DNA of 59,626 bases, counting the filler, from Jimgerdemannia flammicorona (taxonomy: Eukaryota), in assembly GCA_003990765.1 (NCBI GenBank). It is 3 parts of 3 records of this genome, joined end to end, with 100 filler letters (N's around TTAATTAATTAA, not from the genome) between each part and the next. Parts side by side here need not be neighbours in the genome. Positions count along the whole stretch, not along the records: positions 19,913 to 39,723 come from RBNJ01001847.1; 2 more parts are not named here. The stretch is one strand, 5' to 3'. Below the pieces are notes generated by a model. That model was not told the DNA's origin, made no database searches, and worked only from the letters and a program-made list of their open reading frames with translations. Each line of letters starts with the position of its first letter. The stretch's first letter is position 1. Positions 18,949 through 57,139 of this stretch are shown here, in pieces. The translations under genes were made by a program, and so were the position numbers.

Positions 18949-19912
18949 TCAGGCAGAAGAAGCTGGACGAAAGGTTTCCGGACGATAAAAGAGGGGGTTG
19001 TTTGAAGGAGAAAAGGGGGCTGTGTAGGCGGAAGGCCAAGTGAGCATGTGGCTAGTGGTCTGTGCGAATAACGCCTGCCTGCTTACGGCACAGCTTACTC
19101 CTGGTCACTGTTAGTACCTTGATCTTGGAGCTAAGGACCATTCACATTTAAAATAAACAAATCTTCCACATGACATGATTGTTGTTTGACAACTGATACT
19201 CTCTTCTTGACGCCAAAACGAATCATTGAGAGACGCGTCACTTTTTTTTTTTTTTTTTTTTTTTTTTCCCAAGTTTGCTTAACGCTGTTCGTCGACACAC
19301 ATAAAAGTATATAATTGGTGTTCTGGGATTCCATGATTCAGGCCTAGATTAATGAGATGTCTCACAACGGTCCAATGCATGTACATAATTATGCAGAGTC
19401 GAGGTGGTGAGATTTATGAGGTTCTGAAAGTCAAAAGTTGTCAAATTGGTAGGTTCTACAATGATGCCCTTTAAGCGGTGCTTATCTTGTGGTGCACGAA
19501 TACCGAACTTTGAACTCTCTTTGTGTACGATATCAAGCGATAGTACGAATGTCGGGATGACAACCACGAGCCATTAGTCATTGTTACAGTCGAAAATAAG
19601 ACGACATACGAACCACTACATTGCCCACTCGTAATTAAAATCGCATATAAACTTGAAGAGTGATCTTATTTTAGTCGTCAATGGTCACCATTTTAGGTCC
19701 ATCCAAACTAGTGTTTTGAATCTGTAGACAATGATTGTTTTTAATGACAATGCTTATTTTTGATGACAATGCCGATTTTTGATGAGAATTTTTTTTTTTT
19801 TTTTTTTTTTTTNNNNNNNNNNNNNNNNNNNNNNNNNNNNNNNNNNNNNNNNNNNNTTAATTAATTAANNNNNNNNNNNNNNNNNNNNNNNNNNNNNNNN
19901 NNNNNNNNNNNN

Positions 19913-22153: not shown

Positions 22154-25100
22154 GCAATAATGACAATAAATTTGTAGATCTCATCTCCTTCAGTGATGAC
22201 AAGGATAAAGCCCCCATGATCTTGAACTTTCTGCTCTAAGTTCTTTGTTACACTGAATAATGCCAGCACCAGCATTCTGAGGTGACACAAATTTGTACCA
22301 GCACCGGTATTTTGAGGTAGTACTGAATAATACTAGCACTGGTATTCTGATATAACACTGAATTATACCAATATCCTGAACCTATACAACCATCAGTACA
22401 GACTCTAGAACTTAGTAGTTTTAGTTATTAGAATTTATATTTAGCTTTACATCTTAGCAACCATTGAATTATATTTTGTATAAATACTCCTCTTATTTTC
22501 TCTGAAATAAAGTCAGTTCTGGTTTCACTTACACATACTTTCTTACAAGCAATCTAAGAGATAACAAGATAGTTAAAGATAAGACGTTTGAGGACTATAA
22601 GACCTTGGAAAGGTACTCCAATAAGAACTTGCTTATAACAAACTTAAGTTAGTCTAAGAGATATATCTTGAAGAGAATCTGGCATATTTGAAGGACTCAG
22701 CGACCACTACATGATAACTTGGTGCCCATTGGCTGGTGATTTAAGATGAAAAATGAACAACCTCCACAATAACTACTCTGACTACAAGAGTCACCCCTGC
22801 AAGAATTCAAGATAAGATAGAAATGTGTCCCCCACATTCTATGGATATACTACTGAAGAGTCAATTCTGACCTTTATTGAAGACTTTGAACAATTCACCA
22901 CTGTACGAGCCCTTGATGTGGATACTCAATTGGCCCTTCTACCAGTCAGCCTCAGAAGATCTGCCAGAGACAAGTTCAATGCAGCCACCATTGCTGATGC
23001 TGGTGCAGCCAAACTTGTCAACATAAAGGCCTTCTTCAGAACAACATACTATACTGAAGCAAGCTCTCAAGGATCAACTCAATATTATCTGCCAGGGACT
23101 TAGTGAAGATCCTAACTCATTCTATACCTGAATCTGCCACCAGATTGTTCTGGCTGGCTATGATGACCACCTCAAGGAACAAATAGCAGATTCAACCTTC
23201 CTTAAAGGAGTTCACCCTGAAATTGCCTTAGCAATCCAGTCTACCCCAACTGTACTGACCCTTGATCAGAAAGTGGTCTTTGCACAGAGATATTAGACTG
23301 CCAGACACCCTGCCAAACACTCAATGGAGAAAATAACTAGCATCAAGATGGAGTCATCAAAGCCAACTAGTATTATACCTGCTACAGTTGTAAACAGACA
23401 ACCAACTCCACCTACCTCCAAGATAGCCAAAGCTGACCCAGTGGAGGAACTTGCCAAGCAGGTTGCCAAGATGACTGCACACCTTGGTGATGTTGTTAGA
23501 GAAGTCCAAAGTGCCAACAGGAGACCAGTGTAGAGATTTGCAGTTACTACAGAAGAATGCAATATTACATACTTCAGATGTAGAGAAGAAGGCCACTATG
23601 CAAAGAATTTCATAACTGAAACAAGATGCAAAGCCCAACCAAGCAATACTAGCAGAACCAGAGAACAAACCAATGCAGTAGTCATCAAGGAGATTGGTGA
23701 TACTGATGATGAAGAATACTATGAGGAGCTCAAATTCTACCCGCTACTGAAGGTACCAGAACCCAGGCCAAGCCCTATGACAAGAAGAGCAACAGCAAGC
23801 CAGTTGGAAGACCAAAGAAGACCCCAGCTGTCACTATTCAAAGTAAGACCCAACCCAAGGAGATTGATCAAGACATAGAGTTAGATGAAGCTGCCCACCA
23901 AATCATTGAAGGTACTACTCCAGTCTTAGGAGAAAGTGAAAGCAAGAAGGAACAGAAACTGTGCAAGACCAAGATCCACCAGTATGATATCTACAAGGAT
24001 CTCAAGGAACAGAAGGTCAATGCTACTTTTGGACAACTAGTCAAAGTTCCTGCCTTTAGACAGCAGTTGAGAGTAGGACTTGTAACTACCACCAAGAATC
24101 AAGAGTACAAGATTGTAGAAGCTCACAATGCACAGGAAGAATGTGAGAACTCAGGTGAAGAATCCAAAGACTAGTGCAAGACATCAGCCTATACTCCATG
24201 TCAGATTGAAGACTGTATCTTTGATGCTATCATTGATACTGGTACTGGAGAATGCCTCATGAGGAAGAAGGCAATTGACTGCCTAGGCTGGGATATTGAA
24301 GAGTCCACCAAGATAGTCTATGTCACAGCAGATAGTACACAAGCTACCCCCCTTGGCAAAATCCAAGAAGTCCCCATCAAGATAGGAGGAGCTACCATCC
24401 CAGTAGATGTGATTGTTATAAGCGCCACCAACTATGATATCCTCATTGACAACCAATGGCTTCACAAGGCCAAGGCCATCATTAACCTCAATGCCCAGAA
24501 GATGCAGATCAACTATAGAGGAAGAAAGGTACAAGTCTCTATAAATGTTCACAAAGGAGTCCTACCAGACATAGAAAAAGGAGATAAAGAGGACACAGAG
24601 GTCTTCATGTACTCAGTGAACAAGAACAAGAACAAGACACCCAAGCTCACAGATGAGTAGTGGTACAACAAGATCATCAATGGGTATGCCCCTCAAGGAA
24701 GATGCCCCCATGGTACTAGGATGTACTGCTCTGAACACCTGAATGACTGCTGGTTCTATATCAGTGAAGTCAGGAAAATCCACCAACAGAAATATGAGCA
24801 AGAAGCTGCTGAAGTAAAAAGGAAAGCTGAAGAAGATGACCAGCCCCCAGAGCTTCAGGCTGACAGTAACAATGAGGAGAAACAAGAATCAGACATCACC
24901 CTCAAGATCAAGAAGTTTCACCCTGAAGCTAAGATCTCAGAATACAAGACTGAAGGAGCTATAGGAATGGATCTTGCCAGCATTCAAGATGCTACCCTCG
25001 AACCACAGACCACCACCCTACTTGGTACTGGAATTAGAGTCAAGTTGTCAGAAAACCATGCCAGAATTATCAAGACCAGGAGCAGTCTGGCCAAAAGCAA

Positions 25101-28100
25101 AATCTCAGTTGAAGGAGGAGTAATTGACTCTGATTACACCAGCGAGATCTTCCTCATAGTCAGGAATCACAACCCTACCACCCCATTTGAAGTCAAGAAG
25201 CATGATAGGATTGGTCAGATGCTGATCCACGAAATCAAGAAGTCCAAGATCATAGAAGCCATTGAACTCATCAAGACCAAGAGAGGAGAACAAGGCTTTG
25301 GATCTACTGGAAGAGGAGCCTATGCTGCCACCAAGATTACTGAACTTGAGCACAAGAAAGATAAGGACCAGAATAAGCACACATACACTATTGGAGAAAA
25401 CTTTCCCCTGGAGGAATAACTTCTCAAGATCCTGTATCAGAATGAAGGAGTACTTGCTACAGACTTCTGAGATATCCACAATCAAGAACCCAAGTACTAC
25501 CATGAAGTTGATACTAGTGATACCAAGTCCATCTACCAGAAAGCCAGACCCATACCACCTGCCTATAGAGAATGGCTGTGAGCAGAACTCAAGGAAATGG
25601 AAGAAGCTGGAATTATCAAGCAAGCTATCAGCCCCTGGGCCTCACCCATTGTCCTTGCCCTGAAGAAAGGAAGCAAGTCTGGAGAGTTTGTACCAAGACT
25701 CTGTATTGACTATAGGAAGCTCAATGCCATCACCAAGAAGGATAGGCAGCCCTTGCTGAATATTCAAGAAATCCTTACCACCCTTGGGAGTGAAGCCAAA
25801 TACTACACTACCTTGGATCTGTTCTCAGGCTTCCATCAGATTGGTCTCACTCAAGATACCAGCAAGAAACCAGCCTTCATTATACCTGATGCCACCTATA
25901 TCTACCTGTGAATGCTATTTGGAATGTACAATGCCCCAGCAAGTTTCCAGCAAATGATGAACAGAGTCTTTAGCAATGAGATTGAAAAATGGCTCTTTGT
26001 CTATATTGATGATGTGATCATCTTTAGCAACACTGCATGGGAACATATCAATTATATATAGCTAGTCCTCAAGAAGCTCAAAGAGCATGGCCTCTACATC
26101 AAGCCCAAGAAATGCAAGTTTGTAGTCCAGGAAATCACCTACCTAGGACACCTCATCAACCAGACCAGAATTCACACAGACTCCATAAAGATTGAGGCTG
26201 TTGCAACCTACCCAAGACCCAGAACAACCACAGAAGTCCATGCCTTCCTTGGACTGGCCAGCTACTACAGAAGATTCATCAAAGGATACTCCAACATTGC
26301 AGCACCCATCTATGAGCTACTGAAGAAGGAAACCAAATTTAAATGGACTAAGGAGCACCAAGAAACCTTCAATGAACTCAAGACCAGGTTGACCCAAGCA
26401 CCTATCCTCAGAAGACCAGACTGGAATCTAGAATTCATCTTGCAGACAGATGCAAGTGCTATAGGACTTGAAGCAGTCCTAGCTCAGAAGAAAGATGGAC
26501 ATAAATATGTCATCTCCTATGCAAGCCAAGGTACCTGTAGAGTAGAACAGAACTACAAGTCATGTAAGCTCAAATGCTTAGCAGTAGTTTGGGCAGTAGA
26601 TAAGTTCCACTACTACCTAGCTGAGAAATACTTTACTATTCAAACAGACCATTCTGCCCTTGCCTGGCTATTCCACACTCTGAACCCCAAAGGAATATAT
26701 GCCAGATAGATCTACAGACTACAAGAGTATGACTATACTGTCAAGCACCACTCAGAAAGAACTAATACCAATACTGATGCACTCTCAAGGACACCCTGAA
26801 ACACCCCCAACAAGACCATTCAACATGAATAAGGAGCTATACTATGGATTAATCAGCTATCTTGGGCAGTAGAAGATGCCCAACTACCTTGAACCCTGGA
26901 CAATCACCATCATCAACTGGACTTGGAAATAGTTTGAACTAGACAACACTACACTCAGAAAAGGAGGAAAGCTAGTAATACCTAAACACAAGAAGTATTA
27001 AGTAATGAATAAAGTACATGAGCAAGGATACCTAGGAGGAACCAACACATATAATAAGGCAAGAAGAACCATGTAGTGGCCCAAGATAGAAGAAGACCTG
27101 TGCCAATTTGTCAAAGGGTGTAACAAGTGCCAAAAACAGAAACAAGATCAATAAGACCAGGAACCTGGGTCATCAAGAATTGAGCCTATCCCCTTCCACC
27201 ACATTGCAATAGATATCATCAGACCACTATCAGTAACACTATCAGGAAACTACTATATTATAGTTATTGTAGACCTCTTCACCAAATAGATAGAGACAGG
27301 AGTATTACAAGAAGCCAATGCCTTCTCTATAGCTGACTTCCTGTATTAAGAAATCATCTGCTGCTACAAGACACCAAAGCAAATCACAACAGACTATGGT
27401 ACAGAATTTGTCAATAGATTCTACAAGATAATGTATCAGAAATACAAGATCCAGTACATCAAGACCACTGTGTACCACTCTCAAGGAAATGGACAGACAT
27501 AGAGAACCAACAAGACCTTCAAGAATATCCTAGCAAAGATCTCAGAGACATATGAGAATTGGGATAACTATCTCCCAACTGCCCTCTCTGTCCTATGAGA
27601 TATATGGTCACAGAGTACACACTTTACCCCAAGGGAGCTACTCTTCAGAAAAGAAGATTCTGATGGAATCTCAGCCACAAATCTAGACCTAACTTGGAGA
27701 TGGGATGATGCAGAAATCCAGAGACTATACCAAATCAGGAAGAAGACTGAAGATTACATCATCAAGTCACAAGTACTGATAAGGAAGAATGCGGAAAAGA
27801 ATCACAAGGCCCTAGAACCCATCTGAATTAGAGAAAAGGTTCTACTGTATCAAAATATGGTAGAAGCCTCATAGTCATGAAAACTGAAGCCCAAATGGGA
27901 AGGACCCTTCTATGTGCAAGATATCAAGGGAACTACCTTCTGGCTTAGAAAAATCTCAGGGACTATACTGCCTACTATGGTACATAGGAACAGACTCAAG
28001 AAGTACTATAAACCTATACAAGAGAAGTATAATGTGATGACTGCCCATGAGGTTCTAGTCTGCAAATCATAACAGCATATCCTATGGCCAGCAGGCTATC

Positions 28101-28385
28101 TGTCTGGACCATTCTCTAAGGGATACGGCACTGGCAACTACTCATCTGTAAGACTTTTGAAGTCAGAGGAGTTTGAACCATCAACTGATTGATCAAGATC
28201 AGAATTAGGCCCTTGCTCTATATGAAGGGAGCAACCCTTCACTATCATGCCAAAATACAAAGAGAAGATACCAGCCTATAAATACCACTTTTTGACCTCT
28301 TGCCAGAGGTTATGGGATTAGCAAATTTTTCAAGACTGGACCAATGAATAAGGATGCTCAAGAAGATCCTTATTCAGGAGGAAGA

Positions 28386-29822
28386 TGTAATAGTGACCTC
28401 AGAAATGATGACATCAGCAATGGAGACAGTCTTTCCTTGTAAGCCACCAGATTGGAGCACAAGAAGATTATACAGTATATGAGATAAGCAATAATGACTA
28501 ACTGTGAGTCATTGTGACCACAGTACAAGCATCCTGAGGAATATAAAAGAAGGATCAAGGAACTACAGTAACAGTAACCAACAAGACCCACTAATCCCAA
28601 AATAGCTTAAAGACTTACTATAAACAAAATGCCTGCTGCCCACTAAACCTCAAGGTCAAGGAATCACCAAGATATCTCAGTCAAGGAGAGAATGTTCTAA
28701 GACATCAGAAGAGCTATAAGGACCTGCTCAAGAAGAACTCCTAGTATCAACCTGGGTACTGGTGACTCTTATCATTATATCCTCTACTATCATAAAATGG
28801 AAACAAGAATCGCTATTGCCACCAAATACCTCCAAATGTGGCAGGAGTATGAAATAGGAAACCTCCTCTGTCAGGAGTTTCCATAGGCCAGCACTCAAGA
28901 GCTATAAGATGCCACTCCTATGGATATATATGAAATGAGAACAGCTAAGAAGATCCATCAGATCTTCAGACATGCACCATGGTCAATCCCCAACTTGGAG
29001 TATGTTAGAGTCTCAGATTTCAGAGACCTATCATCCCACCATATCAATATACTAGAAGCCAGAGTGGCTACAGAAGCCCAGTCCACCATCACCCTCAATA
29101 GTGATGAAGTAGAAGACTTCTGGCATCCTATCCTTCAGGACAACCCAGACCAATTCCTGCAAGGATTGATCTCAGTATTCTAAGGCTCAAGTATCCAGAT
29201 TAGACCTCTCCAAGACCCCATATTTATTCCCTATTTTGTGGAAGAGAATCTCATAGACTGGAGAGCTTCAGATCTCCTTGTTCCCATCACCGCCAAATGT
29301 AATGATGTCATAGCAATGATATCGTCCCATGTAATATCAAAGCACATGAAACGTATAATATACAAGATGCATGACCTATGTAACAATGACAATGAATTTG
29401 CTGATCTCATCTCCTTCAGTGACAACAAGGATGAAGCCCTCATGATTTTGAACTTTCTACTCTAAGTTCTTTATTACACTGAATAATGCCAGCACTGGTA
29501 TTCTGAGGTGACGTGAATTTGTACCAGCACTGGCATTTCGAGGTAGCACTAAATAATACCAGCACCAGTATTCTGATGTAATACTGAATTATACCAGCAT
29601 CTTGAACCTATACAACCATCAGTTCTGGTTTCACTTATATACACTTCCTTGCAAGCAATCTAAGAGATAACAAGACAGTTAAAGATAAGAAGTTTGAGAA
29701 CTATAAGATCTTAGGAAGGCACTCCAATAAGAACTTGCTTATAACAAACTTGAGTTAGTCTAAGAGATACACCTTGAAGAGAATCTGGTATATTTAAAGG
29801 ACTCAGTAACCACTATGTGACA
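28386..29822 (+). repeat. 3' LTR of element B (about 1.44 kb, contains a decayed ORF)
   Basis: Begins TGTAATAG right after purine tract AGGAGGAAGA and ends CTATGTGACA; both termini and the PPT resemble those of family C LTRs. Confidence 0.7.
28629..29465 (+). pseudogene. Decayed accessory ORF (about 279 codons) of element B, unknown function
   Basis: Single frame from ATG 28629 to TAA 29465 joining ORFs 28920-29183 and 29238-29465; internal stops are all TAA/TAG, compatible with C>T decay. Confidence 0.65.
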
Positions 29823-31348
29823 ATGTCAATAAAAATAAAAGAGAAGTTATTTATGAAAAAGGAGAATAAGTATTACTCAGTATCTAGTATCTGACTCTGA
29901 ATAATATAGACTCTAAAAAGAAGCTTAGACTCTACTATATTGGACCATTCAAGATCCTTAAAAAATATAAACTTGTTCATATAAGTTAGACCTCTCAACA
30001 ATACTAAAAGAATTTACCCAGTATTTTATATATCTCAACTTCAGTCATATATACTAAATATCTTTGAAGAAAGAACTGTGTTACCTCCAGATCTAGTAAT
30101 TATTTATCAGTAATCAGAATATAAAATAGACTACACTTAGATCACAAGAATTACTGATTTGGATAAGCTACCAAGCCCACTCAGTACTATCTTATAAAAT
30201 GGAAAGAATATTCTAACTATAATACTATCTGAGAAATAGAAGATAATCTTTTACCAAGTAGTAACTTAATACAGATATCTGATATAATGAAAATTCTGAT
30301 AGAATTTCCAAAAGACAGTTATATCTCTAAATATCCCTAATGAAGAGAGGTATAAATATTCTAAAATAATCTCATATAAATAACTTACTCTCAATATAAA
30401 TACCTAGTAATAATACTAAGAACAAACTAAGAATAAGATTGCTACTACTATTCTTATAGCTATCAATACTAATAGAATTCTACTAAACTACTTTTTGTCA
30501 ATATATAAATCTCTAAAGATCTAGATCTAAATAAAGCTCAACAATATCTTAGAAGGATCTAATATTTCCAGACTTTTTACTACTAATAAAAATTAAAGGA
30601 GTACTATAAGATAGAATATCTTATTTATCAATAAGCTACTCTCAGTGCTACCAAATAATGAGTCCACCTTTTTATTAATAACCATATCTATATTATTATC
30701 AAAAGACTCTATATTCTTTTCTGCACCTAACTATAAGTCCTTCACTACCTCTGTAGAGTATCTTCTAAGAATATTGTTAATTTAAATGATGAATAATAAA
30801 GTGATATTGTTTTTCAAGTAGTCTAGTATACTGCTCTTCAGTTTGAAAAGTATCTGGAGTTTAGTGCTAAGTCTAATAAATAGACTCAGATAAAGAAGAG
30901 AAGAATGTAATAAATTATTACATATATATCTACAAAGCTGCTGGAATTTCTAATAGAAAATTCTATGGAAATTTCTATAGAATTTTTTATAAAAATTTCA
31001 ACTAACAATCATAGTTATCTAAAATAGTATAAATATATAGATATATCTAGTATACTATATTTAGTTATAGTCTCAAATATGTATAAATACTCTCTATACT
31101 GATTTTGTTATAATCTCAGCTCTACTTTCTCTGAATTCAAGAATAAAGTAACATTCTTATTACAAAACTCTCAGATCTGACTTATTAACAATTCTAAGTC
31201 TGATCAACTTGGAATACAAGTATGGCACTTCTATCTATATAAAAATCTGAAAGCAATATCTGAACTCTACTATAACAGATAATTGGAACTCAGTACTTTC
31301 TCACAAAGACTTAGAACTTAGGACCAATAGTTAGTTGAATTATTCACA
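29823..31348 (+). mobile_element. Very decayed chromovirus 3' end F (integrase GPF module, chromodomain, PPT, LTR), host of element B
   Basis: YIGPFKI at about 29936, YLIKWKEYSNYNT at about 30188, purine tract then TGTAAT at about 30906. Confidence 0.65.
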
Positions 31349-31382
31349 ATATATTAATTCTATTAGTATATAGTTTTATTAT

Positions 31383-32789
31383 TGTAACATAGTAGATGTA
31401 TAACTATAGAAGTATGTTGGATTTCAGTATCTTAGAAACTTGATCTTCTTTGACTCTGCAGAGTCCTCAGGATGTAAGAGTGGGTAAGTTTAAAGTATAT
31501 CTACCTATAGACTTACTAGTTCTTTTGCTTTTTCTTTACTTTGAACTATTTTGATCTGAGGTTTATTTACTCTAGATACTGGGGATTTATATAAGTTTGC
31601 TAGCTATAGGGTGGCTAAATTATAACTATATTTCCTGTGAGTTACTTTTCATAAGTATTAAACTTTTAACATTTGCTAAAACTTTGACAATTGCCAAAAG
31701 TTTAATATCTGCAAAATCTTCAACATCTGTAAAGAGTTTAACATTTGTAAAAACTTTAACAGTTGTGAAATAACAATAACTGCTATTTGTAAGATTATAC
31801 TATATTAGAAATTGAGTTCAGATACTATGGTAAAATGTCTAATTTCCTTGATTTATATTTCTAATTCAGATCAACTATTACAACTTCCTCCTAAATAAGT
31901 AATTTATCTCTGAAATATCCCATTCAAACTCCCAAACTTCTATGATTTGTATCTTTTTATATTGTGTGATTTGTATTATTACATACTTCCAGTAGTATCT
32001 TTTAATATATCTAAAGTCTCCTGAGACTACTCTATGAAGATGGGCTAGAGCTGGCTCATCATTCTTGAACATCTTGTTGACTTGTTTGGTAGTTGTAATC
32101 TGAGTATGAGAGAGCTAGCACTCTCTAATCTAGTCTTCTTTTCCCATGTCTAGTCATGAGTTTAGTAGCTATCTCAATTTGAAGTATTCTTTAAACTTAA
32201 TTTGGTTCTAGTAGACTTTGAAGTGTGAGATTTATGACAAGTGTGTCTGAACTATACTCTATATACTGTCAAAGGATTCTTCTATAGTTGGTAGCTCAGT
32301 AGTATACCATAGTCTTTCTATAGCTCACTATGCAGCACTGATGATCTTGAGGGCTGTAGTAGTACTTTATTGATTAGCCATAATACTTTTTGAGTTAGTT
32401 TTGATGAATAGTAGTAGAGGTGATTGTGTCTGAGAGTTTTTGTAGCCAAAAGGTGGTTTTTTTTATATCTTATATCAGGTAAGGTTCTTCCTACTTAGGT
32501 TCCAGTTTTTATGACCATAAAGCTTCTACTATGTTCTGATATATTAAGACTTTGTCTCCTATCTTGATAATCTCTAGGGGCTTGAAAATCTTTTCTGTAT
32601 TATTTCATTATAGTATCTGTACCTTGGTTATATAATTCTTGGCCTTGTTCCTGATTTGGTATAGTCTTTATATCTCTGTATCTATATATATATTTCCATA
32701 TAGTATCTCTATTAGACAATAGGGTTCCTTGAGAACTTTCTTCTCTGAACAGCATCTCTTGAGGAATGAAATGAATACTTTATAACTAG
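31383..32789 (-). mobile_element. 3' fragment of Ty3/gypsy element C2 (LTR 31383-31882, PPT, accessory ORF, integrase C-terminus)
   Basis: Colinear diverged copy of 32790-34150. Confidence 0.85.
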
Positions 32790-35700
32790 TATAATATAGT
32801 GGATGCTTAACCTTGGAAGTATGTCAGATTTCTATATCTTGAAAACTTAATCTTCTTTGACTCTGCAGAGTCTTTAGATGCAGAGGGGTGAGTTTGAAGT
32901 ATATCTGCCTACAGACTTACTAGTTTCTTTGCTTTCTCTTTGCTTTAAACTATTTCAATCTGAGGTTTATTCACTCTAAGATACTGGGTTATTTATACAA
33001 GTTTGCTAGCTATAAGGTGGCTAAGTAATGAGTCATTTTCTGCAAGTATTAGATCTTTTAACATCTGCTAGGATTTCACTGATTACCAATTTTCTAACAT
33101 CTCCTGAATATTTGCAAATGTTAAAGTTTCTGCACTTTGCAGAATATGACTGCTATTTGTGTGGCTATACTATATCAGAAATTGGATTCAGATACTGCAA
33201 TCAAAATGTCTAATTCTCCTGATTCATATTACTAATTCAGATCAACTATCACAACTTCCTCCTGAATAGGTAATTCATCTCTGAAATATCCTATTCACTC
33301 AAACTCCCAGACTTTTACAATTTGTATCTCCTTGTACTATGCAATTTGTGCTATTACATTCTGCCAGTATTATCTCCTAATATATCCAAATTCTCCTTGA
33401 GTTATCTCTCAGAAATGAGCTAGAGCTGGCTCATCATCCTTGAATAACTTATGCACTCTCTTGGCAATTGTGATCTGAGTGTAAGAGAGCTGACATTCTC
33501 TGATCCAGTCTTCTTTTCCCATTTTTGACTTTGAATTCAGTAGTTGTCCTAGCCTGAAGTATTCCTGAAACTTGGTTCAGTTCTGGTAGGCCTTGAAGTG
33601 TGAAATTTATAACAAGTGGATCTGGACTATACTCTGGATACTATCAAAGGATTCCTCTATTGTGGGTGACTCAGCAGAACACCACTGTCTTTCTATGGCT
33701 TATTGGGCAGCACTTGTGATCTTGAGGGCAGCTGCATTACTTTATTGACTGCTCATAATACTTCTTGAGTCAGTTTTGGTAAATAGTAGTGGGGATGATT
33801 GTGCCTGAGAGTTTTTGTAGCTAAAAGGTGGTTTCTTTTATATCTTGTACAAGGTAAGGTCCTTCCCACTTAGGCTTCAGTTTTCATGACCATGAAGCTT
33901 CTATCATATTCCGATATACCAGGACTTTGTCTCCTATCTTGATAATCTTCAGAGGCTTGTGAATTTTTTTCACATTATTCCATTGTAGTATCTGCGCCTT
34001 GTTTATGTAATCTTCAGCCTTCTTCCTGATTTGGTGTAGTTTTCATATCTCCATATCCATGTGTTTCCATACAGCATCTCTATTGGATGATAGGGTTTCT
34101 TTTCTCCAAATAGCATTTCTTGAGGGGTAAAGTGGGTGCTTTGTGATCAGATATCTTGAAGAGCAGATAATGCTATTGGCAGATAGTGATCCCAGTTTTC
34201 ATAGTTATTACAGATCTTAGTGATAACATTCTTGAGAGTCTTGTTAGTCCTTTTCACCTGTCTATTTCCTTGAGGGTGATAGGCTGTGGTCTGAATATGC
34301 TAAATCTTGTACTTCTTGTAAAGAACCTCAAAGAACTGATTCATGAATTCTGTTCCTCTGTCTGTGGTTACTTACATTGGGGTCTTGAATTGGCAGATGA
34401 TTTCTTTGTAGAAGAAATCAGCAATTAACTGTGCATTGGCTTCTTTGAGGGGTCCTGCCTCTATCCATTTTATGAAGAGGTCTACAATGACAATGATGTA
34501 TCAGTTGCCAGGGTAGAGGGCCAATTACATCTATTGCAATGTAGGTAAATGGTGCTGGTTCTATATGTGATCATCTTAGGACTTAATTTCATTGATCTTG
34601 TTTCTGCTTCTGGCATTTGTCACATATCTTGACAAATTGTCTAATATCTTCCCCCATTCCTGGCCACTACATTTTTCTTCTTGCTTTATCATATGTATTG
34701 GTTCCTCCTAGATGGCCAAGTTTATGTACTGATTTCATTGCTTACTCCTTCTTGTGTTCTGGTATAACTAGTAGTTTTCCTTTCTTCAGTGTTTCTCCAT
34801 TAGTCTCAAATTGTTTTTATGTTCTATTGATAATCATTTGAGTCCATTCTTTTAGATATTGGGGCATCCTTTGCTGTCTCAGGTATGTGATGATTCTATA
34901 GTAGAGTTCTTTATTCATAATTGATTTGCTGGTTGGGAGTCCTTCAGAGTATCTGTGAGAGAGTATCTACATTGGCATTGGTTCTTTCTGGGCAGTGCAC
35001 AATGGTTATATCATATGCTTGTATGTAACTTCATGATCCATCTGGCATAGATTCCTTTGGGTTGCCCAGTGATCAGTAGTCAAGTGAGGGCTGAGTAGTC
35101 TATCTGAATGGTGAAGTGTCTTCTAGCAAGATAGTAGTGAAACTTTTCTACTACCCAGATGACTGCGAGGCACTCCAACTTGTATAATTTATATTTCTTT
35201 TCAGCTCCTCAGGTTCTATGGCTGAGGTATGTAATGACATACTCTACTTTGTCTTTCTTTTGAGCTAGGACTGCTCCTAGTCCTTGTGCACTTGTATCTG
35301 TCTGAAGGATGAATTCTTGGGTCCAGTCTGGTCTTCTAAGGATGGGTGCTTGGGTCAGTCTGACCTTGAGCTCATCGAATGCTTGTTGCTGCCTGCCCAT
35401 CTATTGGAATTTGATGTCCTTTTTGTTTAGTTCATAGATTGGGCTTATGATGTTGGAAAATCCTCTAATAAATCTATGATAATAGGAGGTGAGTCCCATG
35501 AAGGCTTGGGCTTCAGTAATGGTAATAGGTCTTGGGTATACTGCTACTGCTTATATCTTAAGAGGGTTCATATATGTTCCATCTTGATTGATGACATGAC
35601 CAAGATAGGAGATCTCAATTTCTGCAAACTTGCATTTCTTGGGCTTGATGTAAAGACCATGTTCTCTTAGCTTCTCTATTATCTGCTGGATATGCTGCAG

Positions 35701-37167
35701 ATATTCTTCAGCTGTCTTACTATAGATGATTACATTATCTATGTAAACTATCATCTATCTTTCTATATTATAGTGGAAGATTTTGTTCATCATTTGCTGG
35801 AAGCTTGCTGGTACATTGCACATTCCAAATGGCATTTACAGATAGATGTAGGTTCCATCTAGAGTTATGAAGGATGACCTTTTACTTGCTGCTTCAGTGA
35901 GACCAATTTGATAGAATCCTGAGTATAAGTCCAAGGTACTGTAATACTGTACTTCATCTCCTAGAGTTACAAGAATGTCACTGATAAGGGGCAGTGGTTG
36001 GCAATCTTTCTTAGTAATCAGATTGAGTTTTCTGTAATCAGTGCAGAGTCTTGGGGTGAATTCTCCTAGCTTGCTTCCTTTTTTCAGAGCTAATACAACT
36101 GGTGGAGCCTAAGGGCTGCTGGCTTCTTTGATACTGGCTTCTTCCATCTGCTTGATTTCTTCCCTAAGCCATTCATAGTAGACTGGTGGAATGGATCTTG
36201 CCTTCTGATAAATTGATTTGGTGTCTCCTGTGTCTACATCATGATAGTAGTATGGGGTCTTTCCTTTGATGTCTCTGAAATCTATGGCAAGGACATCCTC
36301 GAATTCATAAAGTATCTTCTTGAGTTTCTTCTTGAGTGGAAACTCATTTCTGATGATATAGCTATGCTTGTTTGTAGTTTCCTCCTTCTTGTGATCCAGT
36401 TTGGTGATCTTGGTGCTAGTGAATACTTCTCTTTCTATGGATCCAAATCCTTTTCTTCCTCTTTCTGTTTCCTCCAACTTCTTGACTTCCATGATCCTTG
36501 GCTGAAGAACTGGGAGGATCAACATCTGTGCCAGTTGGTCCTTCTTCTTGATTGGAAATAGAATTGTAGAATTGTGATTTCTAGCAATAAGTAGTATTTC
36601 TCCAATGTAATTGGAATTAATAACTCCTCCTTCAATTGTGATTTCACTCCTAGCCAGGCTGCTTCTTGTCTTGAGGATTCTGATATAGTCTTTTGAAATG
36701 GTCATTTTCAGACCAGTTACTAGTAGGGTGGTTGTCTGGGGTTCCAGTACAGTTTCCTCTACTGTGGCAATATCCATTCCAGCTGCATTTTCTGACTTGT
36801 ATTCTGATAAGACTGCATCAGAATGAATCTTCTGAATCTTGATCTTGATTTCCCCTTCTTCATCACTATCTTCAAGGAGGGCTGGTGGTTCATAATCTTC
36901 TTTCTCTATTCTCTTCTCTTCTCTTGCTTGTTTCCCAAGGGCCTTCTCTCTTCTTTGGTGGTAGATTTCCTTAATTTTACTGGTGCACTGATAATACTTA
37001 TTGATATGCTCCATACAGTACATTCAGATCCCATGGGGGCAGACTTCTTGTAGTGTATATCCTTTTGCGATCTTTTTGCACTATTCTTCTTTACTCATCT
37101 ATTCAACTTTCTTCTTCTTTTTCTGAGTGGTCACCATGTAGGCTTCCTCTTATTTGCTCTCTTGTTC
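32790..37167 (-). mobile_element. Ty3/gypsy element C1 (dUTPase-RT-RH / IN, accessory ORF, 3' LTR 32790-33253), relative of B, 5' part missing
   Basis: dUTPase (AGMDI, TRSSLA, GGVINSNYIGE, RGRKGFGS), VYIDNV, LQTDTS, GHLG..CDKCQ; PPT 33254-33263; colinear with B. Confidence 0.9.
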
Positions 37168-38450
37168 TGTAAGTATACAACCTCCAAGCTACTGAAATCA
37201 CATGTCACCCTCCAAACAAATCTGGAAATCACCTGCTTGATCACAAAGCTGAGTCAAACCAAAGTTATAGTATATGTATAAAGCTGAGTCAATATGAAGT
37301 CACAGAACACAAGATTTACACAAACAGAATCTAACCAATTAGGACCAAATGCATATATACTGAGCACCAAGATGTGTTGAAACAGAGAACCAAAACAAAC
37401 AACAACTACAACTTCTGAACATATACAAACATGACTACTGAGATCTACAACTATATCTGTGCTGATATTTGGAATACCATTGTCAACCAAGCCACACCCT
37501 CTCTACCCCTCATGAATATCTATAGTCTAGCACCCCTCTACTTTATGAAAGCCTGATGGAATGCCCTGAACATACTTAGTAAGGCCCACCAAATCAGACA
37601 AATCTCAAGCTACTATCAGATCAGCCACCTCCTAGAAGACATGATCAAACACCATCATAATACAGACATTACTCAGATGTCTCAACACCAGAAGCTCATT
37701 GCCTACAAACACAGAGAACTCTTCTATGAGTACAGCACCTTTATTCTCTGCCTTTGAGTCACTACCACTGAAATGGTTACTACTCTATCCTATGGCCAAA
37801 TCAATGACATGATACAAGAACTCAACCACAAGTACATTGAGTACATTCAGACCATAGACAGAACCTTCCTGCACTCTGATGACCAGATCCTGCAAATGCC
37901 TCAAGTTGAATATATCATGAAGAATATCTATGATATAATTCAATTTAATAAAGATGATACCAATATGACCTCAAGCCAAGGATCTCTGCCAACTCTGATC
38001 ACACCGCCAACCTTGCCAATGAACTTACAACAGTTCATAACCACATACAAGACTTATTGAGATAATGACCACTGGCATGAATACTAACCTGTGTTCACCC
38101 CCAATTACTTCAACTACAATGAAGAGACTAGAGAACACAACCTGTACCTTCAGACAACTCTCGAGATCAAACCAACCACTTCACCACCCAAGTATGAGCA
38201 ATATAAACCACAGCCACCAGCTTACTACAACCCCATGACTCATAGTGCTATAACCTATAGAAGGTATACAGACAGCGAATCTAATGAAAGTGAAGATGAT
38301 ATACCACTCCTTCACCTACCAACTCTATATCCAGCATATGAGACAGATGATGCTATTTTATGGGATGGTAATAAAGTCCCAATGTATTCAGGGCATCTCT
38401 CTCCAATACAATTCGCATTACACAAACTTCAAGCAATGGTTTTATATACA
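37168..38450 (+). mobile_element. Element D: probable LTR-like insert carrying a decayed accessory ORF (from ATG 37431)
   Basis: Abrupt TGTAAG start interrupting C1; one frame from 37431 joins ORFs 37773 and 38091; motif pattern shared with B and C accessory ORFs. Confidence 0.5.
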
Positions 38451-38453
38451 ACT

Positions 38454-39723
38454 CGGAGAAACAAACATGGGCAACACAGGCAACACAGGCAAGATGGGCA
38501 AGATGGGCAAGATGGGCAAGATGGCAAGATGGCAAGATGGGTAACATGGGCAAGACAGGCAGATGGCAAGACAGGCGACATGGGCAAAATGGGCAATATG
38601 GGCAATACGGGCAACATGAGCAACAAGGGCAACACGGGCAATACGGGCAACATGGGCAGGTAAGATAGGCAAGATGGGCAAGATAGGCAAGATGGCAAGA
38701 TGACAAGACAGGCGACATGGGCAAGATGGGCAAGACAGGCAAGACAGGCAAGATGGGCAAGACAGGCAAGATGGGCAAGATGGGCAAGATGACAAGATGG
38801 CAAGATGGGTGACATGGGCAAGATGGGCAGATGGCAAGACAGGAGACATGGGCAAGATGGGCAAAACAGGCAAAACAGGCAAAACAGGCAAAACAGGCAA
38901 AACAGGCAATACCAGCAATACTGGCAACACAGGCAGGCAATATGGGCAATACAGGCGGACAACACAGACAACATGGGCAACACAGGCAGGTAACACGGGC
39001 AATACAGGCAACACAGGCAACACGGGCAATACGGGTGGGTAAGATGGACAAGAAGGGCAAGACAGCAAGATGGGCAACATGGGCAAGATGGGCAGATGGC
39101 AAGACAGGTAATATGGGCAAGATGGACAAAACAGGCAAAACAGACAAAACAGGCAACATGGGCAACATGGGCAACATGGACAACACAGGCAACATAGGCA
39201 ACATGGGCAGGCAAGATGGGCAAGATGGGCAAGATAGGTAAGACAGGTAACACGGACAATATGGGCAAGATGGGCAAGACAGGCAATACAGGTAACATGG
39301 GCGGGCAACACAGGCAATACGGGCAACATGGGCAACATGGGCAACATGGACAACACAAGCAACACAGGTGGGTAAGACAGGCAAGATGGGCAAGATGGCA
39401 AGATGGCAACACAGGCAATATGGGCAGGCAAGACAGGCTAGATGGGTAAGACAGGAGGCACTAATAGGGGTAGGTCAGGTGCACTAGATGCCAAGTACTT
39501 GAGGTGGTTGGGGCTCACAACCCATACCCACTGGGTGGGGCAGGCCAGGTAGGAGGATCTAGTTACTCAGGTAGTGAGGTCACAACTTATACCCTAAAGG
39601 TATAAGGCTGGAAGTGGGTTGAGATTGGGGTAGAATGGGACTACTGATGTTGTATGAGGATATGTGGCATGTTATAGATAGTTAATAAATGAGTAACAAG
39701 GCTGAAAAAAAAAAAAAAAAAAA
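38454..39723 (+). mobile_element. Poly(A)-tailed non-coding retroposon P1 (VNTR + G-rich 3' end); 5' boundary approximate
   Basis: AATAAATGAGTA then poly(A) running into the gap; 3' motifs shared with P2. Confidence 0.55.
38466..39455 (+). repeat. 9-bp minisatellite (GGCAAGATG/GGCAAGACA/GGCAACATG/GGCAATACG variants) with higher-order blocks
   Basis: Directly visible GGCAA-core tandem units over about 1 kb. Confidence 0.95.
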
Positions 39724-39823
39724 NNNNNNNNNNNNNNNNNNNNNNNNNNNNNNNNNNNNNNNNNNNNTTAATTAATTAANNNNNNNNNNNNNNNNNNNNN
39801 NNNNNNNNNNNNNNNNNNNNNNN

Positions 39824-40011: not shown

Positions 40012-43000
40012 TGTAACAGTTCTAGTTTCTTTAAGAGGAAGTGGCTAAATCTAAAAGTTCTAGTTGATCTAAAGTAACTCAAAAAGATACTTAAAGGTTC
40101 AAGTGTTCTTGAAGGATTTCTGAGAGAAAAATATTCTGAGCTTTATTCAGGCAGAGAATAAGGATATTTATATATAATCTGAAAGAAAGATCTGGAAGGA
40201 TCTTGGAAAGAAAGAAAAATGCCAAGAAATAGATTCTCAGTAAAGCTGACTAATACAATTCTATAATGTTCTGAAAGATTCCATGACTAGCTAAGACAAG
40301 ATACTTGGTGCCAAGGAAAGACAAGAATGTTCTAGTGGTGTCTGGGTGTAGAGAGAAGATTTCTAAGCAAGTTAAAGGTGATGGAACATAGTAGAATATT
40401 TAAGAAATAATAAGAAAAGACTAACTAAAAGAAACAAAAATGTACTAAGACTAATATGACTGTGAATTTATTACATCTCTCTCTCCTTAAGAACCAATAT
40501 CCTCATTGAGTTCTTAAGTAACATAAGACTAGATATACTTAACTAAAATTTCTCAAACTTATATCAGTATATTGATAGAGATTAGCCATTCTTGTATAGA
40601 GCAGAGGGCCTATTATAACAGACTAACTAACTGAGAGGGGTTCAAACCCAGCTAGTAGCTTTATTTTAGTAGACTTCTTGTTCATTAAATGTTCTACTGG
40701 TTCTGGGTTCCCAAAGTAAACTTTTAATGCATAAGATACTGGTCTTTGCCATAGATCATTGATAATCCAAGAAAGTCACTATAGGGATTGGGCAATGTAT
40801 TTTGCCTCAAAGTCTTAAACTAGATCTTAAGAGTTCTTGAGGTTGACCAGTAGTTCTCAGGTAGTATCATATTTGGGGTAATCCATCCACTTGACTAGAT
40901 ATTCAGGATGGTGATAATAGATTCATTTGTCAAGAATTTTCTCAGCTTCATACTCAATGTGGTCTTCAATAATCATGAAAGCAAAAGGCTTAGAAATTTG
41001 ACCAGGGTAGAGTGGTGACTGGTTTTAGGTCTTGAGGTGTGATATATGAAAGACTGGGTATACTCTCATGGTTTCAGGTAGCTTGAGGTGGTAGAAGGAT
41101 ACAGAGACCTGTTCAGTGATCTCAAAAGATCCAATATACTTAGGTTGGAACTTGTTCAAAGGGTGATTGATTTGGGATTATATCTTGAGATTCTCAGTAG
41201 ACAGTAGAACTTGATCTTCAACAGTGTAAGTGATATTATGGCATTTCTTATCAGCATACTTGGCTTGATGCTGTTGAGCTTTCTGAAGATTTGCAGTAGT
41301 AATCTTAAGTGGTTTGTCCATTTTATCTATAAGGTTCTTGGTGGTTAGAACTTATATTTGACTAGTTTTCTTAAAAGGGAATAGACTTGCAGAGGTTTTG
41401 GGATCTTGACCATAGAGTAATCAGAAAGGGGAAAGACTAGTAGATAATTGAATAGCATTGTTGTATATAAACTCTACATAAGTCAGATAGTGGTCTCAAT
41501 TATCTTACTCATAGAAAACATAGTTTCTGAGTATTTGTTCTAGAGTTCTATTCATGTGCTCAGTTTGTTTATCAGTTTATGAGTGAAAGGCAGTAGACAT
41601 AGCCAATTGGGTTCCCAGAGTCTTGAAGAGAGTTTGCCAGAAGTGACTAGTGAACTTGGGGTCACAATTGCTAAAAATTACTCATAGTAGGCCATAGTGA
41701 CAGAAGATGAACTTGAAGAAGATTCTTATAATTTCAGATACAGTAGCATTGGTAGTAGTTGGTTCAGCAACCATAGTCTTGGTCAGGTGGTCAATGAATA
41801 TGATGATAGTATTAGTACCAGATTGAGTTTATAGTATTTGAGTTATAAAGTCCATAGTGATTTGCTCAAACTTCTTGGTAGGAATTGGCAGTAGTTATAG
41901 TAAACTGACAGGTGCTTGGTTGGTAGACTTATTGCACTGATATAAATTATAGCTGGTAACATAGTTCTTGATTTCCTTGACTATGTTTGGCCAATGGTAG
42001 TGATATTGGATGTTTTTAATAGTCTTCTCAATTCCTAGATGACTGGTAAGAGGGGAGTCATAGTGTTCATGCAAAACCTTATAGCATAGGTTTATATTTT
42101 CAGATAGATAGACTTGATTTTGATGATAGATCAGGTTGTTCTTAACAGTATATATATCTTTGAGCTTGTTTGAGAAAACTTTAGTGACAACTGTGTCTTC
42201 TTTGTAAACTTGTCTGATTTGGTCTAGGAATTCTAATACCAAGGTGACTTGTATGATTGTAGTGAGGTCTGGGCATCTTGATAAGACATCTGGTACTACA
42301 AGTGTCTTTCCAGGCTTGTAGATGATCATTGGATTGAAAGTTTGAAGCTTGAGGCTCCACTTGGCTTATAGATGTGACAGAGTAGATTGGGTATTGATAT
42401 ACTTGAGAGATTGATGATCAGTAATGACATCAAACTCAATATCTTCTAGATAGCATTACCAGTGATCTAGTGTATATATTATTACCAGTAGTTTCTTCTC
42501 ATAAGTAGCTAGCTTTTGTTTAGCTGGGGCCAGCTTATGGGACTTGAAGCAATAGGGTGATGTTCTTTGTCATCATCTTATGATAGAACTGCTCTAATGG
42601 TAAAATTTAACCCATTAGTAGTGACTGTGAATTTTAGGCCTTAATCTGCATTATGTAGGACTGGAGTATAGGTCAGGTAGTTCTTGAGTTCTTGAAAGGC
42701 TTATTGACAGAAGAGGTCTCAGATGTAGAATATATAGTGGTCTGAGTGCAGGGCCTTCCTCATGAGATTGGTCAGTGGTTCAGCAATACCAGAGAAGTTT
42801 CTGACAAAGCAGCAGTAATAGCCAGCTAGACCAAGAAAGGATTGGAGTTCTGTAAGGTTTGACAGAATGGACCATTCTTCAATTACTTCTATCTTGTGTG
42901 GGTCTACTTAAATTCCTTATATAGAGACAATGTGACCAAGATATTTGACTTATTTCTTGAAGAATATATACTTCTTGAGCTTGGTATAGAGCTTGTGTTT

Positions 43001-46000
43001 TCACAGGATCTCCAGGACTATTCAAATGTGTTTAAGGTGATCTTCTTTAGCTGCACTAAAGATCAAGATGTTATCAAGATATACCAACAGAAAAATAAAT
43101 AGTTGGTCCTTAAATATCTTATTCATCAGAGTCTGAAATGTAGTGAGTATATTGGTGAGACCAAATGCTAAGACCAGAAATTCATAGAGTCTAAAGGAGA
43201 TCATGAATGCAGTTTTGAGAATATCTTCTAGCTTGATTCAGATCTGGTGGTATCCTGACATGAGGTCTAACTTGGTGAGATACTTGACATTCTTGAGAGT
43301 ATTAAAGATTTGATCAATCAAGAGTAGCAGATAGCAGTTCTTGACAGTGATTTTGTTGAGTACATAATAGTCTATGCACATTTGTAGAGTACTATCCTTC
43401 TTTTTGATAAATAAGACTGGTGAGCCATAAGGAGATTTGCTTGGCTGGATGGCTCCTCATGTAAGTAATTCTTCTAGTTCCTTCTTGACTGCTTCAATTT
43501 CAAGTAGCAACATGCAGTATATGTGTTTCTTGAATGGTACAGCTCCTGGGGTCAGTTTGATTTCATGATCAACTTCTTGTATAAGTGGTAGACCAGGTAG
43601 CTTATCTGGAAAGACATCCTTGAATTCTTCTAGCAGTAACTTGATGCTTTTATTAACTGATAGTCTCTTGTCTTGTTTCTTGAGGCAGATCATTATAATA
43701 AAGGCATATATTGCCTTCTTGAGTACTTTCTTATACTATATAGCTGACAGTATTGCAATCTAGGTCTTGCTCATAGTCTTGTCTGTCTTGATCATAATAT
43801 TGGCTCCATCTTGAAGTAAGGTGACTTTATTCTTGCACTAATCAATGTCTGGATTGTGTTTTATAAACCAGAGTTTCCCTAAGATCAGGTCATAATCTTC
43901 TAGTGATACAATCTCAAAGTCTACTCATTCCCAATATTTCTAGATCTTGATGGGCAGTTTGGCAGCAATTGACTTAATGGGGTGTAGAGTACCATCTGCA
44001 GTGACTATACTATTGTTCTTGGGTACAGGCTTGGTAAGGATCTTGAGGCTTTCAATGAGATTCTGATTGATAAAGTTCCCTGCAGCTCTGCTATCTATGA
44101 GTACTTGAACTTCTTTTCCTTTGACTAGGCCTTTAAAAATGAGTATAGCTTGAGCTCAATTTTCACTAAGACTTGCTGCTTAATTGGTGCTGCTAAAACC
44201 CTTTTGATCTCATTTGGTTTTAGGGAGTTCTTGGACTTCTGTAATCTTGAGTTGACTGGCTTTTTCTAAGATCATTTGTGTGACTCAGTCTCCTTCTTTA
44301 ACTGTATAGTCTTGATCCTTCTGATTGATAAGCAAGACTTAAACTTATTCTCAAAAGTTTGAGTCAATAATACTAGCATCTATATCTAAATAATATTTGA
44401 CACTGAGTCCTGATCATGGTGCAATTCTAGCATAATATTCTTCAGAACATTGAACTGCAATTCCAGTAGGCACCAGAGTACAGCTCTTGGCTGAAATAGT
44501 GACTTGTTTGACTGAGTGTAGGTCAAGACCAATGACTTTTTCTGTTTGATATTGAGGAACCTGGGTCTTCAGATGAAGTTTCTTGACCTTGAGCTCAAGT
44601 TGACTGGTGGTGGGGTTGACAGATGTGTTCTTGGACAACACAGTGACTGGTCTTAAGGGTTTGCTAGTCTTCTTAGGACATTTGGTTGCAATGTATTCTG
44701 TTTGGTAACAGAAAAAATAGACTCCTAATTTCTTTAGATGGTCTTTTTGTTCAGGGGTGAGCTTGGTATTCTTTTTGTTCATAGTGTCTAAGTCCATTGA
44801 TGCCAGGCCAACTATCTTTGATTGGTTCTTGTGGCAGTTCTTAAAATGGGGTTTCTTGTGGTGTTCTAGTTTGAAGTAGTTGCCAAAGATGATGATAACA
44901 AATCTATCAACAATTCTTATAGCTTCATCAAGGTTCTTAGACTCTTCTAGCTCAACCTTGACTCATGTGTTTCCCTTCAGACCTCAGATATAGTAGTCTA
45001 TCTTTTCATCCTCAGATATTGCTGGTAGCTCAAGTAGAATTGATAGAAATTATGCATTATAGCTTTGTATAGACTTGAGTTACTTGATATTCACTAGCTT
45101 GTCTCTGACTAGCTTGGTGTATTGACAGGCTTAAACTACTTATAAAGGGCTCTTTTGAAAGCTTCCCAATCTCTGATTTGTGCATATGAGTGTATAGATA
45201 TAACTATAATATGATTTCACTACCAGATAGCTGTATTTCCTTGGAGAAGTATGGCGATAAATTAGACTTATATGTCATTTTCCATTTTTGTGAGCTCGAA
45301 GTATTGGTCCAACTGGAAGATCCATACATCTATAGATAGTCCTTCTTGATGGCTGTCAAAGATATCTAACTTAAGTGGCTTAAAACTGACTAATACTATA
45401 ATAGGATGTGATATATCTGCAGTTTGTGTTTTCTGCTATTTTAGTTGTGCTTGAAGTTCTTGGATTTGGTAGGCTATAGTATTGATCATATTCTCTATAC
45501 TAAGTTGCTGTCCTCCTACTTCTTCTATAGCAGAGGGGTCTGGTTGGTAGACTGACTCTTTATGGCTCATCTTGGGTTCATGTGACTAGTTGTGACTGGT
45601 TTCTAAATTTATATGAGGTTTCTTAATAAGGCAAGATATAATGGCATCACTGCTATCAAGTGTAATAGTTCTAGTTTCTTTAAGAGAAAGTGGCTAAATC
45701 TGAAAGTTCTAATTAGCTTAAAGTAACTCAAAGAGATACTTAAAGGTTCAAGTATTCTTGAAAGAGGACTTCTTTCTCTCGAACCATACTGGTCAAAAGG
45801 TCTAGGTGGAAATTAGATCCCTATGGTACAGGGGAAGGGGGGCCATTAGTGTCCCGAGATTGGGTGTGCCAGAAGTGACAAGAGAAGAGGAGTCCAATAG
45901 TGTTAAGTTGCCCCAATCTCAAGGCTACAGTTTTTAAGAATTCAAGGGTTTTGTCATTTCATAGGCCAGACAGTATGATGTAGGCTCTGGGAGCCACTGG

Positions 46001-56965: not shown

Positions 56966-57139
56966 GGTGTAGGGAAGGGTCTGGTGCCGCAGCCGAGGGA
57001 GAATTAAATTATTTTTCCAAAACAGGAAATGGCAGTCAAATGGTGTATGATGACATCACCGCGGCATACGTAAGTGATGCAACAAACCCCGTGAGTGTCT
57101 TTGCTGCTGGCTCTTCCACAAACCTTCCTCAAAATCAAT
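56966..57139. promoter_or_regulatory. 174-bp divergent (probably bidirectional) promoter between the XPB-like gene and RPN10
   Basis: Head-to-head start codons at 56965 and 57140. Confidence 0.55.

Follow-up and report, generated by a model that had tools for sequence, protein, structure and literature searches.

What is the extra open reading frame (ORF) that recurs at the 3' ends of decayed retrotransposons in Jimgerdemannia flammicorona? The DNA that we analysed, called the window here (59,626 nucleotides from assembly GCA_003990765.1, to which all positions refer unless they are given for another sequence), has a middle contig that is a stack of degraded Ty3/gypsy elements. A preliminary description of this DNA had proposed, by eye, an accessory ORF family common to the elements named B, C1, C2 and D. 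We call the frame ORF3. It is very probably a real protein-coding accessory gene of a fungal, presumably basidiomycete, lineage of Ty3/gypsy retrotransposons with long terminal repeats (LTRs), in which the order would be gag, protease (PR), dUTPase, reverse transcriptase (RT), RNase H (RH), integrase (IN), ORF3, polypurine tract (PPT) and LTR. With the same high confidence we expect its product to be a soluble protein of 150-340 amino acids (aa) with a conserved helical N-terminal domain of about 85-130 aa, to which most subtypes add a tail that is strongly acidic, disordered and interspersed with W, F and L. All five copies in the window (C1, C2, B, F and D) are pseudogenes; they contain many stops, frameshifts were not detected in them, and their elements have almost no CpG.

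The C1 copy (minus strand, 33295-33756; 153 codons plus stop) has seven internal stops and no frameshift. When the stops are read as X, the stretch 33250-33759 of the same strand aligns without a gap to eight intact proteins, P0008-P0015; of the 19 candidates from the search for homologues of this C-type form, eight had E <= 0.01. At full length (P0009) the protein has 153 aa, and its C-terminus reads ...AWEFE. The ATG of C1 (33756-33754), at the very end coordinate proposed previously, stands 17 nt upstream of the pol stop (33739-33737), and the natural stop of the ORF is at about 33297-33295, which leaves about 30 nt to the polypurine tract AGGAGGAAG of element C (33263-33255, minus strand). 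The LTR start TGTGATAG (33253, minus) comes directly after the tract. The 3' LTR of element C (32800-33253, minus, about 450 bp), which contains TATAAATA and AATAAA, ends at the start of the integrase fragment of the next copy. The placement between IN and PPT that had been claimed for C is therefore accurate: the ORF spans the pol stop and terminates short of the PPT. The second C-type copy, C2 (32381 to about 31920, minus strand), has ten internal stops; its natural stop is lost and the frame runs on to 31878. An integrase C-terminal fragment (32370-32823) precedes it, and PPT and LTR (31875 to about 31385) follow. Because C2 follows such a fragment, we take it to be the 3' end of another copy and not a separate invention. 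The DNA of C1 and C2 is about 80% identical over 756 nt.

A far better preserved relative is L001, a 6479-bp metagenome contig and the single confirmed locus among 591 pattern matches; a scan of viral contigs with the B-type alignment gave 332 pattern matches and none that was confirmed. L001 represents the C family almost intact; its LTR measures about 455 bp, and it has a primer-binding site TGGTGCCCATTGG. Its 1281-aa ORF (774-4619) contains gag, PR, dUTPase, RT and RNase H as read by eye, and Pfam, applied to the integrase part only, recognises Integrase_H2C2 (1.4e-19) and rve (7.4e-13). Its ORF3 is intact (153 aa, 5795-6256) and overlaps the IN stop (5836-5838), the ATG lying 44 nt upstream of that stop in the context ACCATGG. 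The PPT and the LTR start are identical to those of C1, at 6289-6297 and 69-77, and the DNA of C and L001 is 71% identical over 1076 nt, LTR included. At both ends of the contig (1-80 and 6220-6300) the final codons of ORF3 are followed by PPT and LTR. L001 represents either one element, assembled in circular permutation and with its LTRs collapsed, or two tandem elements that share an LTR. No contig of three metatranscriptome runs from the same study aligns to L001 at 80% likeness, a result that bears neither way on expression.

How closely is ORF3 tied to pol? In the window, four of the five copies have an integrase remnant of the same strand directly 5' of them; D is the exception. With L001 this supports the linkage to Ty3/gypsy pol, a test of which had been proposed. 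The gene is lineage-specific, since a six-frame hmmsearch of the window with the 20-member profile A6 introduced below shows no ORF3 in the chromovirus E, also in the window, whose integrase carries SH3 and Chromo domains.

Differences per site at first, second and third codon positions are 0.219/0.106/0.414 between L001 and C1 and 0.235/0.149/0.425 between L001 and C2, to be compared with 0.203/0.153/0.464 in RT-RH and 0.242 in the non-coding LTR (L001 against C). Because this pattern resembles that of pol, ORF3 has evolved as a protein in its frame, and the sequence comparison identifies it as a real ORF family under purifying selection. The ratio of observed to expected CpG is 0.00-0.30 in the retrotransposon copies (19913-47314) versus 0.89-1.11 in host genes (2267-3475, 8329-9630 and 55082-57055), and 406 of the 908 differences between L001 and C are G>A plus C>T. 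This fits methylation-driven deamination or a process like repeat-induced point mutation, and it explains why the copies have many stops without frameshifts.

Are the copies one family? The likeness first noted by eye is weak when scored in pairs. Smith-Waterman comparisons against 1000 shuffles give z 2.8 for C1-B (17/1000) and z 4.0 for C2-B (4/1000), and D scores significantly with no other copy. Profiles give a clearer answer. Alignment of the C profile with the B profile by hhalign yields E 1.2e-4 (probability 55%) over 105 collinear columns; MAFFT, applied to 13 intact proteins, arrives independently at the same C-B register, and intermediate members connect the two types (profile E 1e-7 to 5e-16). 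Profile A6 was built from 20 members and contains no window sequence. Searched against the window in six frames, it scores 265.6 bits for B, 139.8 for C1, 101.9 for C2, 12.7 for D and 8.4 for F, with independent E-values (i-E) of 1.7e-82, 4.3e-44 and 1.6e-32 for the first three. The other matches in the window reach 1.6 bits (the tail of B, repeated in the 5' LTR of B) and -3.9; the reversed window gives at most -1.1, and 20 local shuffles -0.9 or less.

The reading that there is no gene here, only frames open by chance or non-coding sequence conserved upstream of the PPT, may now be weighed. It could appeal to the stops that fill the window copies and to the weak pairwise similarities. It has to contend with intact ORFs that fall in 11 clusters at 50% identity, with codon positions that behave as those of pol do, with a confidently modelled domain (see below), and with shuffled and reversed controls that score far lower. 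We consider its probability negligible; a chance ORF is ruled out by those controls together with the codon-position differences.

The family is small in present collections. The intact homologues have open frames at 55-75% identity. A search of 1.84 billion representative proteins with a joint profile of the 13 intact proteins returned only 11 at E <= 0.001, seven of which were new (P0017-P0023) and are small stand-alone proteins of 154-342 aa. All 32 family proteins are of metagenome origin and are called 'hypothetical protein' where the source names them; for 19 members no accession is recorded.

From which fungi does the lineage come? The preliminary description had looked to Mucoromycota and Glomeromycotina, a home that our results do not support. 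In A, B, C, E and L001 the interval from protease to RT contains a dUTPase-like stretch, which was read by eye in the translations (A 20205-21107; B 24661-25419; C 36109-37023; L001 within 774-4619). In the parts of the two papers on which we rely, a dUTPase in this place is reported only from basidiomycete elements (PMC5408684), and basidiomycete elements of that build are described (PMC2864245, Novikova et al. 2010). The layout of A, B, C and L001 matches that given there, and the nearest Atlas cluster with recorded taxa is mostly from Basidiomycota, so that both point to Basidiomycota.

The B copy (28629-29465, plus strand; about 271 codons plus stop; five internal stops) stands for a longer subtype. 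It comprises the helical domain, a second conserved module and the acidic tail, and aligns end to end with the intact proteins P0001-P0007 (215-271 aa); the B-type homologue search gave seven with E <= 0.01 among 35 candidates. B-type proteins as a whole measure 215-342 aa. From the pol stop it is about 590 nt to the start of the B ORF, whose last 85 nt fall in sequence common to both LTR copies of B (from 29381), the part of the 3' LTR at 29381-29823 (plus strand) that is shared with the 5' copy at 22155-22717. Some 240 nt upstream of the ORF, at 28375-28392 (plus), stand a PPT-like AGGAGGAAGA and TGTAATAG, which resemble the PPT and LTR start of C and L001; the stretch 28345-28384 matches the end of ORF3 plus the PPT of L001 at 77% over 44 nt (E 0.045). 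Either the LTR of B is long (1.4 kb) and this site is its true PPT, or the site is a relic. The left end of the 5' LTR copy of B abuts the LTR terminus of element A (TGTAACA on the strand of A, 22147-22153), and that copy may have been cut short. If A inserted in the LTR of B, the LTR would be about 1.4 kb long (28385-29823) and the whole B ORF would lie in its U3 region; this scenario needs no coincidence of junctions. Otherwise the LTR starts at about 29380 and the ORF merely runs into it. The C family cannot fix where the LTR of B starts, because the LTR of L001 shows no DNA likeness to it. The suggestion that the ORFs occupy different positions in different elements thus stands, as does an overlap of the B ORF with the LTR over 85 nt; whether that ORF is wholly inside the LTR, as had been stated, depends on the LTR start.

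Two further copies are probable members of the family, each rather likely on the strength of its profile matches. The D copy of the helical domain (37545-37898, plus strand) has one internal stop, at 37755-37757. Its frame (37419-38480, plus) has one intact relative, P0016 (247 aa, about 59% identity), and the D homologue search had one with E <= 0.01 among 292 candidates. D fails to match the narrow profiles of B and C (E 0.48 and 0.042); with the 20-member profile, hhalign gives E 1.1e-4 over 76 columns in the register first proposed, and hmmsearch an i-E of 2.6e-5. No integrase is seen upstream of D. The D-type C-terminal region (37773-38480, plus strand, in frame with the domain) has no detectable likeness to the B-type tail. 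It contains the motifs ...LPTLITPPTLP..., YFNYNEET... and DDAILW. P0016 begins at a Met inside the helical domain, which reflects either a truncated gene call or a shorter product. The F copy (30536-30826, plus strand; i-E 5.5e-4) is very AT-rich and has many stops. It lies about 250 nt after remnants of integrase SH3 and chromodomain (about 29860-30280; SH3_Tf2-1 E 0.0072 and Chromo E 0.018, both below the Pfam cut-offs). With profile-profile similarity found both for C-B and for D, the proposed family of B, C1, C2 and D is upheld.

What kind of protein does ORF3 encode? An AlphaFold2 model of P0001 on the 20-sequence alignment has a mean predicted local distance difference test (pLDDT) of 72.3; an earlier model on a 10-row C-type alignment was poor (54.2). 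In the former, residues 31-140 are predicted all helical, including one helix of 37 residues, with 10-residue blocks averaging 82-96. A weaker second module follows (helix 152-164, hairpin 179-191), and residues 198-209 and 211-247, below 50, form a disordered tail. Of the 10 members with tails longer than 60 residues, 8 have a net charge of -16 to -32 in the tail. For the core domain the isoelectric point (pI) is below 7 in 16 of 20 members, the whole-segment pI being a crude proxy for the surface. Arg-rich N-terminal arms (pI 11.2-11.7) occur in P0001 and P0003, and basic arms are limited to some B-type members. The C type has no tail and is conserved all the same.

Pfam gives nothing meaningful for the window copies or the 20 members, a sequence profile search of the PDB finds no real match (best E 0.18), and Foldseek yields none at E <= 0.001 in PDB or BFVD. 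The best PDB row, TRPM3, matches the acidic tail and was judged compositional. Proteins with DUF3102 make up three of the first 18 BFVD rows, at a sub-threshold E of 0.6-1.2, and seven of the 30 Atlas feature matches for the C-type protein. No helix-turn-helix (HTH), ParB or DUF3102 family of Pfam appears at E <= 10 in the 20 members, except for HTH_Tnp_Mu_2 (E 0.031) in one of them. The leads to a ParB/KorB-type HTH and to DUF3102 converge and are weak, all being below threshold. An uncharacterised helical accessory protein had been predicted, and the model agrees: an N-terminal domain (residues 30-140) confidently predicted as all helical, with pLDDT about 90, and without relatives in Pfam or PDB. 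The Foldseek comparison that had been proposed beside AlphaFold brought no match at the threshold given above.

ORF3 occupies the place where an env gene might be expected. A 19-residue Kyte-Doolittle window of at least 1.6 occurs in one of the 32 family proteins (the variant P0004), in line with the earlier remark that only the position is env-like and that there is no transmembrane segment. An env-like glycoprotein is ruled out by this hydropathy and by the soluble helical model. A chromodomain is ruled out as well: no ORF3 protein or window copy matches Chromo (PF00385), and the domain is found in the integrase of E (1.9e-6).

One might still ask whether ORF3 is a part of the integrase, a module for targeting integration that replaces the chromoviral chromodomain and becomes fused to IN when ribosomes shift frame by +1 within the overlap. 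Frameshifting of the +1 type is known from Ty1 and Ty3. Relative to IN, ORF3 of L001 lies in the +1 frame, which is open from 5756 onward; over 5756-5838 both frames are thus open, and the integrases of B and L001 have no Chromo match, while the integrase of E has one and E has no ORF3. Set against this, every subfamily has its own Met at an equivalent start, the ATG of L001 stands in the context ACCATGG, the distance of about 590 nt past the pol stop makes a fusion impossible in B, and F seems to carry chromodomain remnants as well as ORF3. We therefore think such a module improbable.

Several suggestions can be made regarding what a separate ORF3 protein might do, and we prefer that of a regulator. 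ORF3 would be translated from its own AUG, via a subgenomic RNA or by termination-reinitiation, and its product, not an enzyme, would regulate the element in trans. Within it the helical domain, with its weak likeness to ParB/KorB-type HTH domains, might recognise a nucleic-acid or protein target of the element. The acidic, hydrophobic tail might recruit host machinery in the manner of an acidic activation domain. If correct, ORF3 would be a transposon-encoded transactivator or adaptor, by analogy with retroviral accessory genes that lie 3' of pol and reach into U3. Gene identity and regulator together make what we regard as the best explanation overall, and we hold it with somewhat better than even confidence; the nucleic-acid-directed regulator or transactivator taken by itself is a tentative proposal. 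Two observations weigh against it. The core domain is near-neutral to acidic, which is not what a classical DNA binder would have, and a mechanism centred on the tail does not suit the C type.

The same acidity would suit a different activity, and this is possible to a slightly smaller degree. ORF3 may bind no nucleic acid and serve as a host-factor adaptor or counter-defence protein, its helical domain and tail motifs binding host proteins, of which silencing, chromatin or trafficking factors would be examples; such binding might protect or route the element, as is the case with retroviral accessory proteins. The protein is acidic overall, given the core pI and the tail charges of down to -32, and the disordered tail has conserved short motifs (EDFW.PIL, DLISF.D and a terminal LNFLL). 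The host mutates these elements heavily (CpG ratios of 0.00-0.30), so that counter-defence would pay. The readings of the tail motifs, however, rest on general consensus patterns, and here too the conserved C type does without a tail.

A structural or chaperone protein that is packaged in the virus-like particle and aids assembly or reverse transcription would likewise be small, helical and element-encoded, and the basic N-arm of B-type proteins could contact RNA. The Gag of L001 already has a CCHC knuckle (C.NC..EGH....C, by eye), however, and nothing ties ORF3 to particles. This we regard as very unlikely.

Returning to the regulator, a more far-reaching version can be put forward, although we consider it doubtful as a whole. 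The lineage may be 'complex' in the retroviral sense, with a trans-acting regulator of its own, made of an HTH-like domain and an acidic activation-type tail, that binds the LTR or RNA and either raises expression or shields the element from host silencing. If so, an ORF placed before the PPT or inside U3 would mean that every LTR, solo LTRs included, carries a copy.

The surroundings of the ORFs may be described briefly. The window is three contigs joined artificially, with N runs around TTAATTAATTAA and stops in all six frames at the joins (19813-19912 and 39724-39823), and adjacency across these joins is meaningless. The middle contig begins with element A (19913-22153, minus strand). Element B (plus strand) follows, its two LTR copies aligning over the coordinates given above. 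Directly after its 3' LTR begins F (29824-31385, plus), a chromovirus-like 3' fragment that is very AT-rich (26% GC, CpG ratio 0.00). As F starts there, a nested order of insertion is suggested: F, then B, then A. Next come C2, the 3' end of one copy on the minus strand, and the degraded pol of element C (dUTPase, RT, RNase H and integrase; 33737-37100, minus), 5'-truncated near 37100, which shares the inverted repeats I1-I7 with the pol of B. Element D extends from 37130 onward on the plus strand. Element E (roughly 40100-47314, minus) is related to A; its LTR copies (about 40101-40474 and 46942-47314) are 90% identical over 300 nt, and its integrase has SH3 at 4.2e-13 in addition to the Chromo match. 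Two repeat regions are also present. Long arrays of a 9-nt unit at 38460-39500 keep several phases open on each strand, with a frame of 373 aa on the minus one, and a separate array at 48690-49980 has periods of 39 nt and about 310 nt.

Extra ORFs are known in LTR retrotransposons, few of them with a function, and in the portion of the fungal survey cited here those of fungi are noted merely in passing (PMC2864245). ORF3 is a defined family under selection; its fold is predicted with confidence, neither Pfam nor PDB has relatives of it, and it is tied to dUTPase-carrying elements. It occurs in several architectures (the bare domain, or the domain with an acidic tail) and in more than one position relative to PPT and LTR. 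It is thus open to study as a candidate regulator or counter-defence factor encoded by a transposon, in fungi with elements heavily depleted of CpG, and its profile lets annotators class such ORFs as transposon genes and not as 'hypothetical proteins' of the host.

How does ORF3 compare with what is known? The legend of Figure 3 in PMC2864245 marks an 'add. ORF' of unknown function in fungal Gypsy elements, which is, like ORF3, an extra ORF of fungal Ty3/gypsy elements; the text as cited gives neither sequence, position nor family. We found no description of the ORF3 family in the literature as searched, where the element-structure supplement of that paper may bear on it. LTR retrotransposons of bdelloid rotifers have captured genes also called ORF3 (PMC5408684). 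As far as the cited part tells, these too lie downstream of pol in dUTPase-carrying LTR elements, but they are of enzymatic origin or env-like, and the ORF3 described here has neither enzyme nor env features. The same paper warns that ORF3 is usually taken for env without evidence. The env-like ORFs of Athila, Tat and errantivirus-type Ty3/gypsy elements share the slot from IN to the PPT or 3' LTR with our ORF3, which has no signal peptide or membrane segment and, at 150-340 aa, is far smaller. As for ParB/KorB/SopB-type HTH domains and DUF3102 (PF11300), all matches are sub-threshold and the ORF3 core is mostly acidic; we do not file ORF3 as a member of either.

Retroviruses have accessory or regulatory genes 3' of pol or env that extend into U3, examples being tas/bel1 of foamy viruses and nef of HIV. 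They and ORF3 alike are small non-enzymatic proteins encoded at the 3' end, and the B-type ORF likewise runs into the LTR. In combining a basic arm with a folded domain and an acidic tail, ORF3 resembles a transactivator in build. No sequence or fold likeness to the retroviral proteins was found (BFVD), and the host of ORF3 is fungal. An accessory ORF3 in an LTR retrotransposon is of a known kind; the protein family described here and its two placements have no description in the literature searched.

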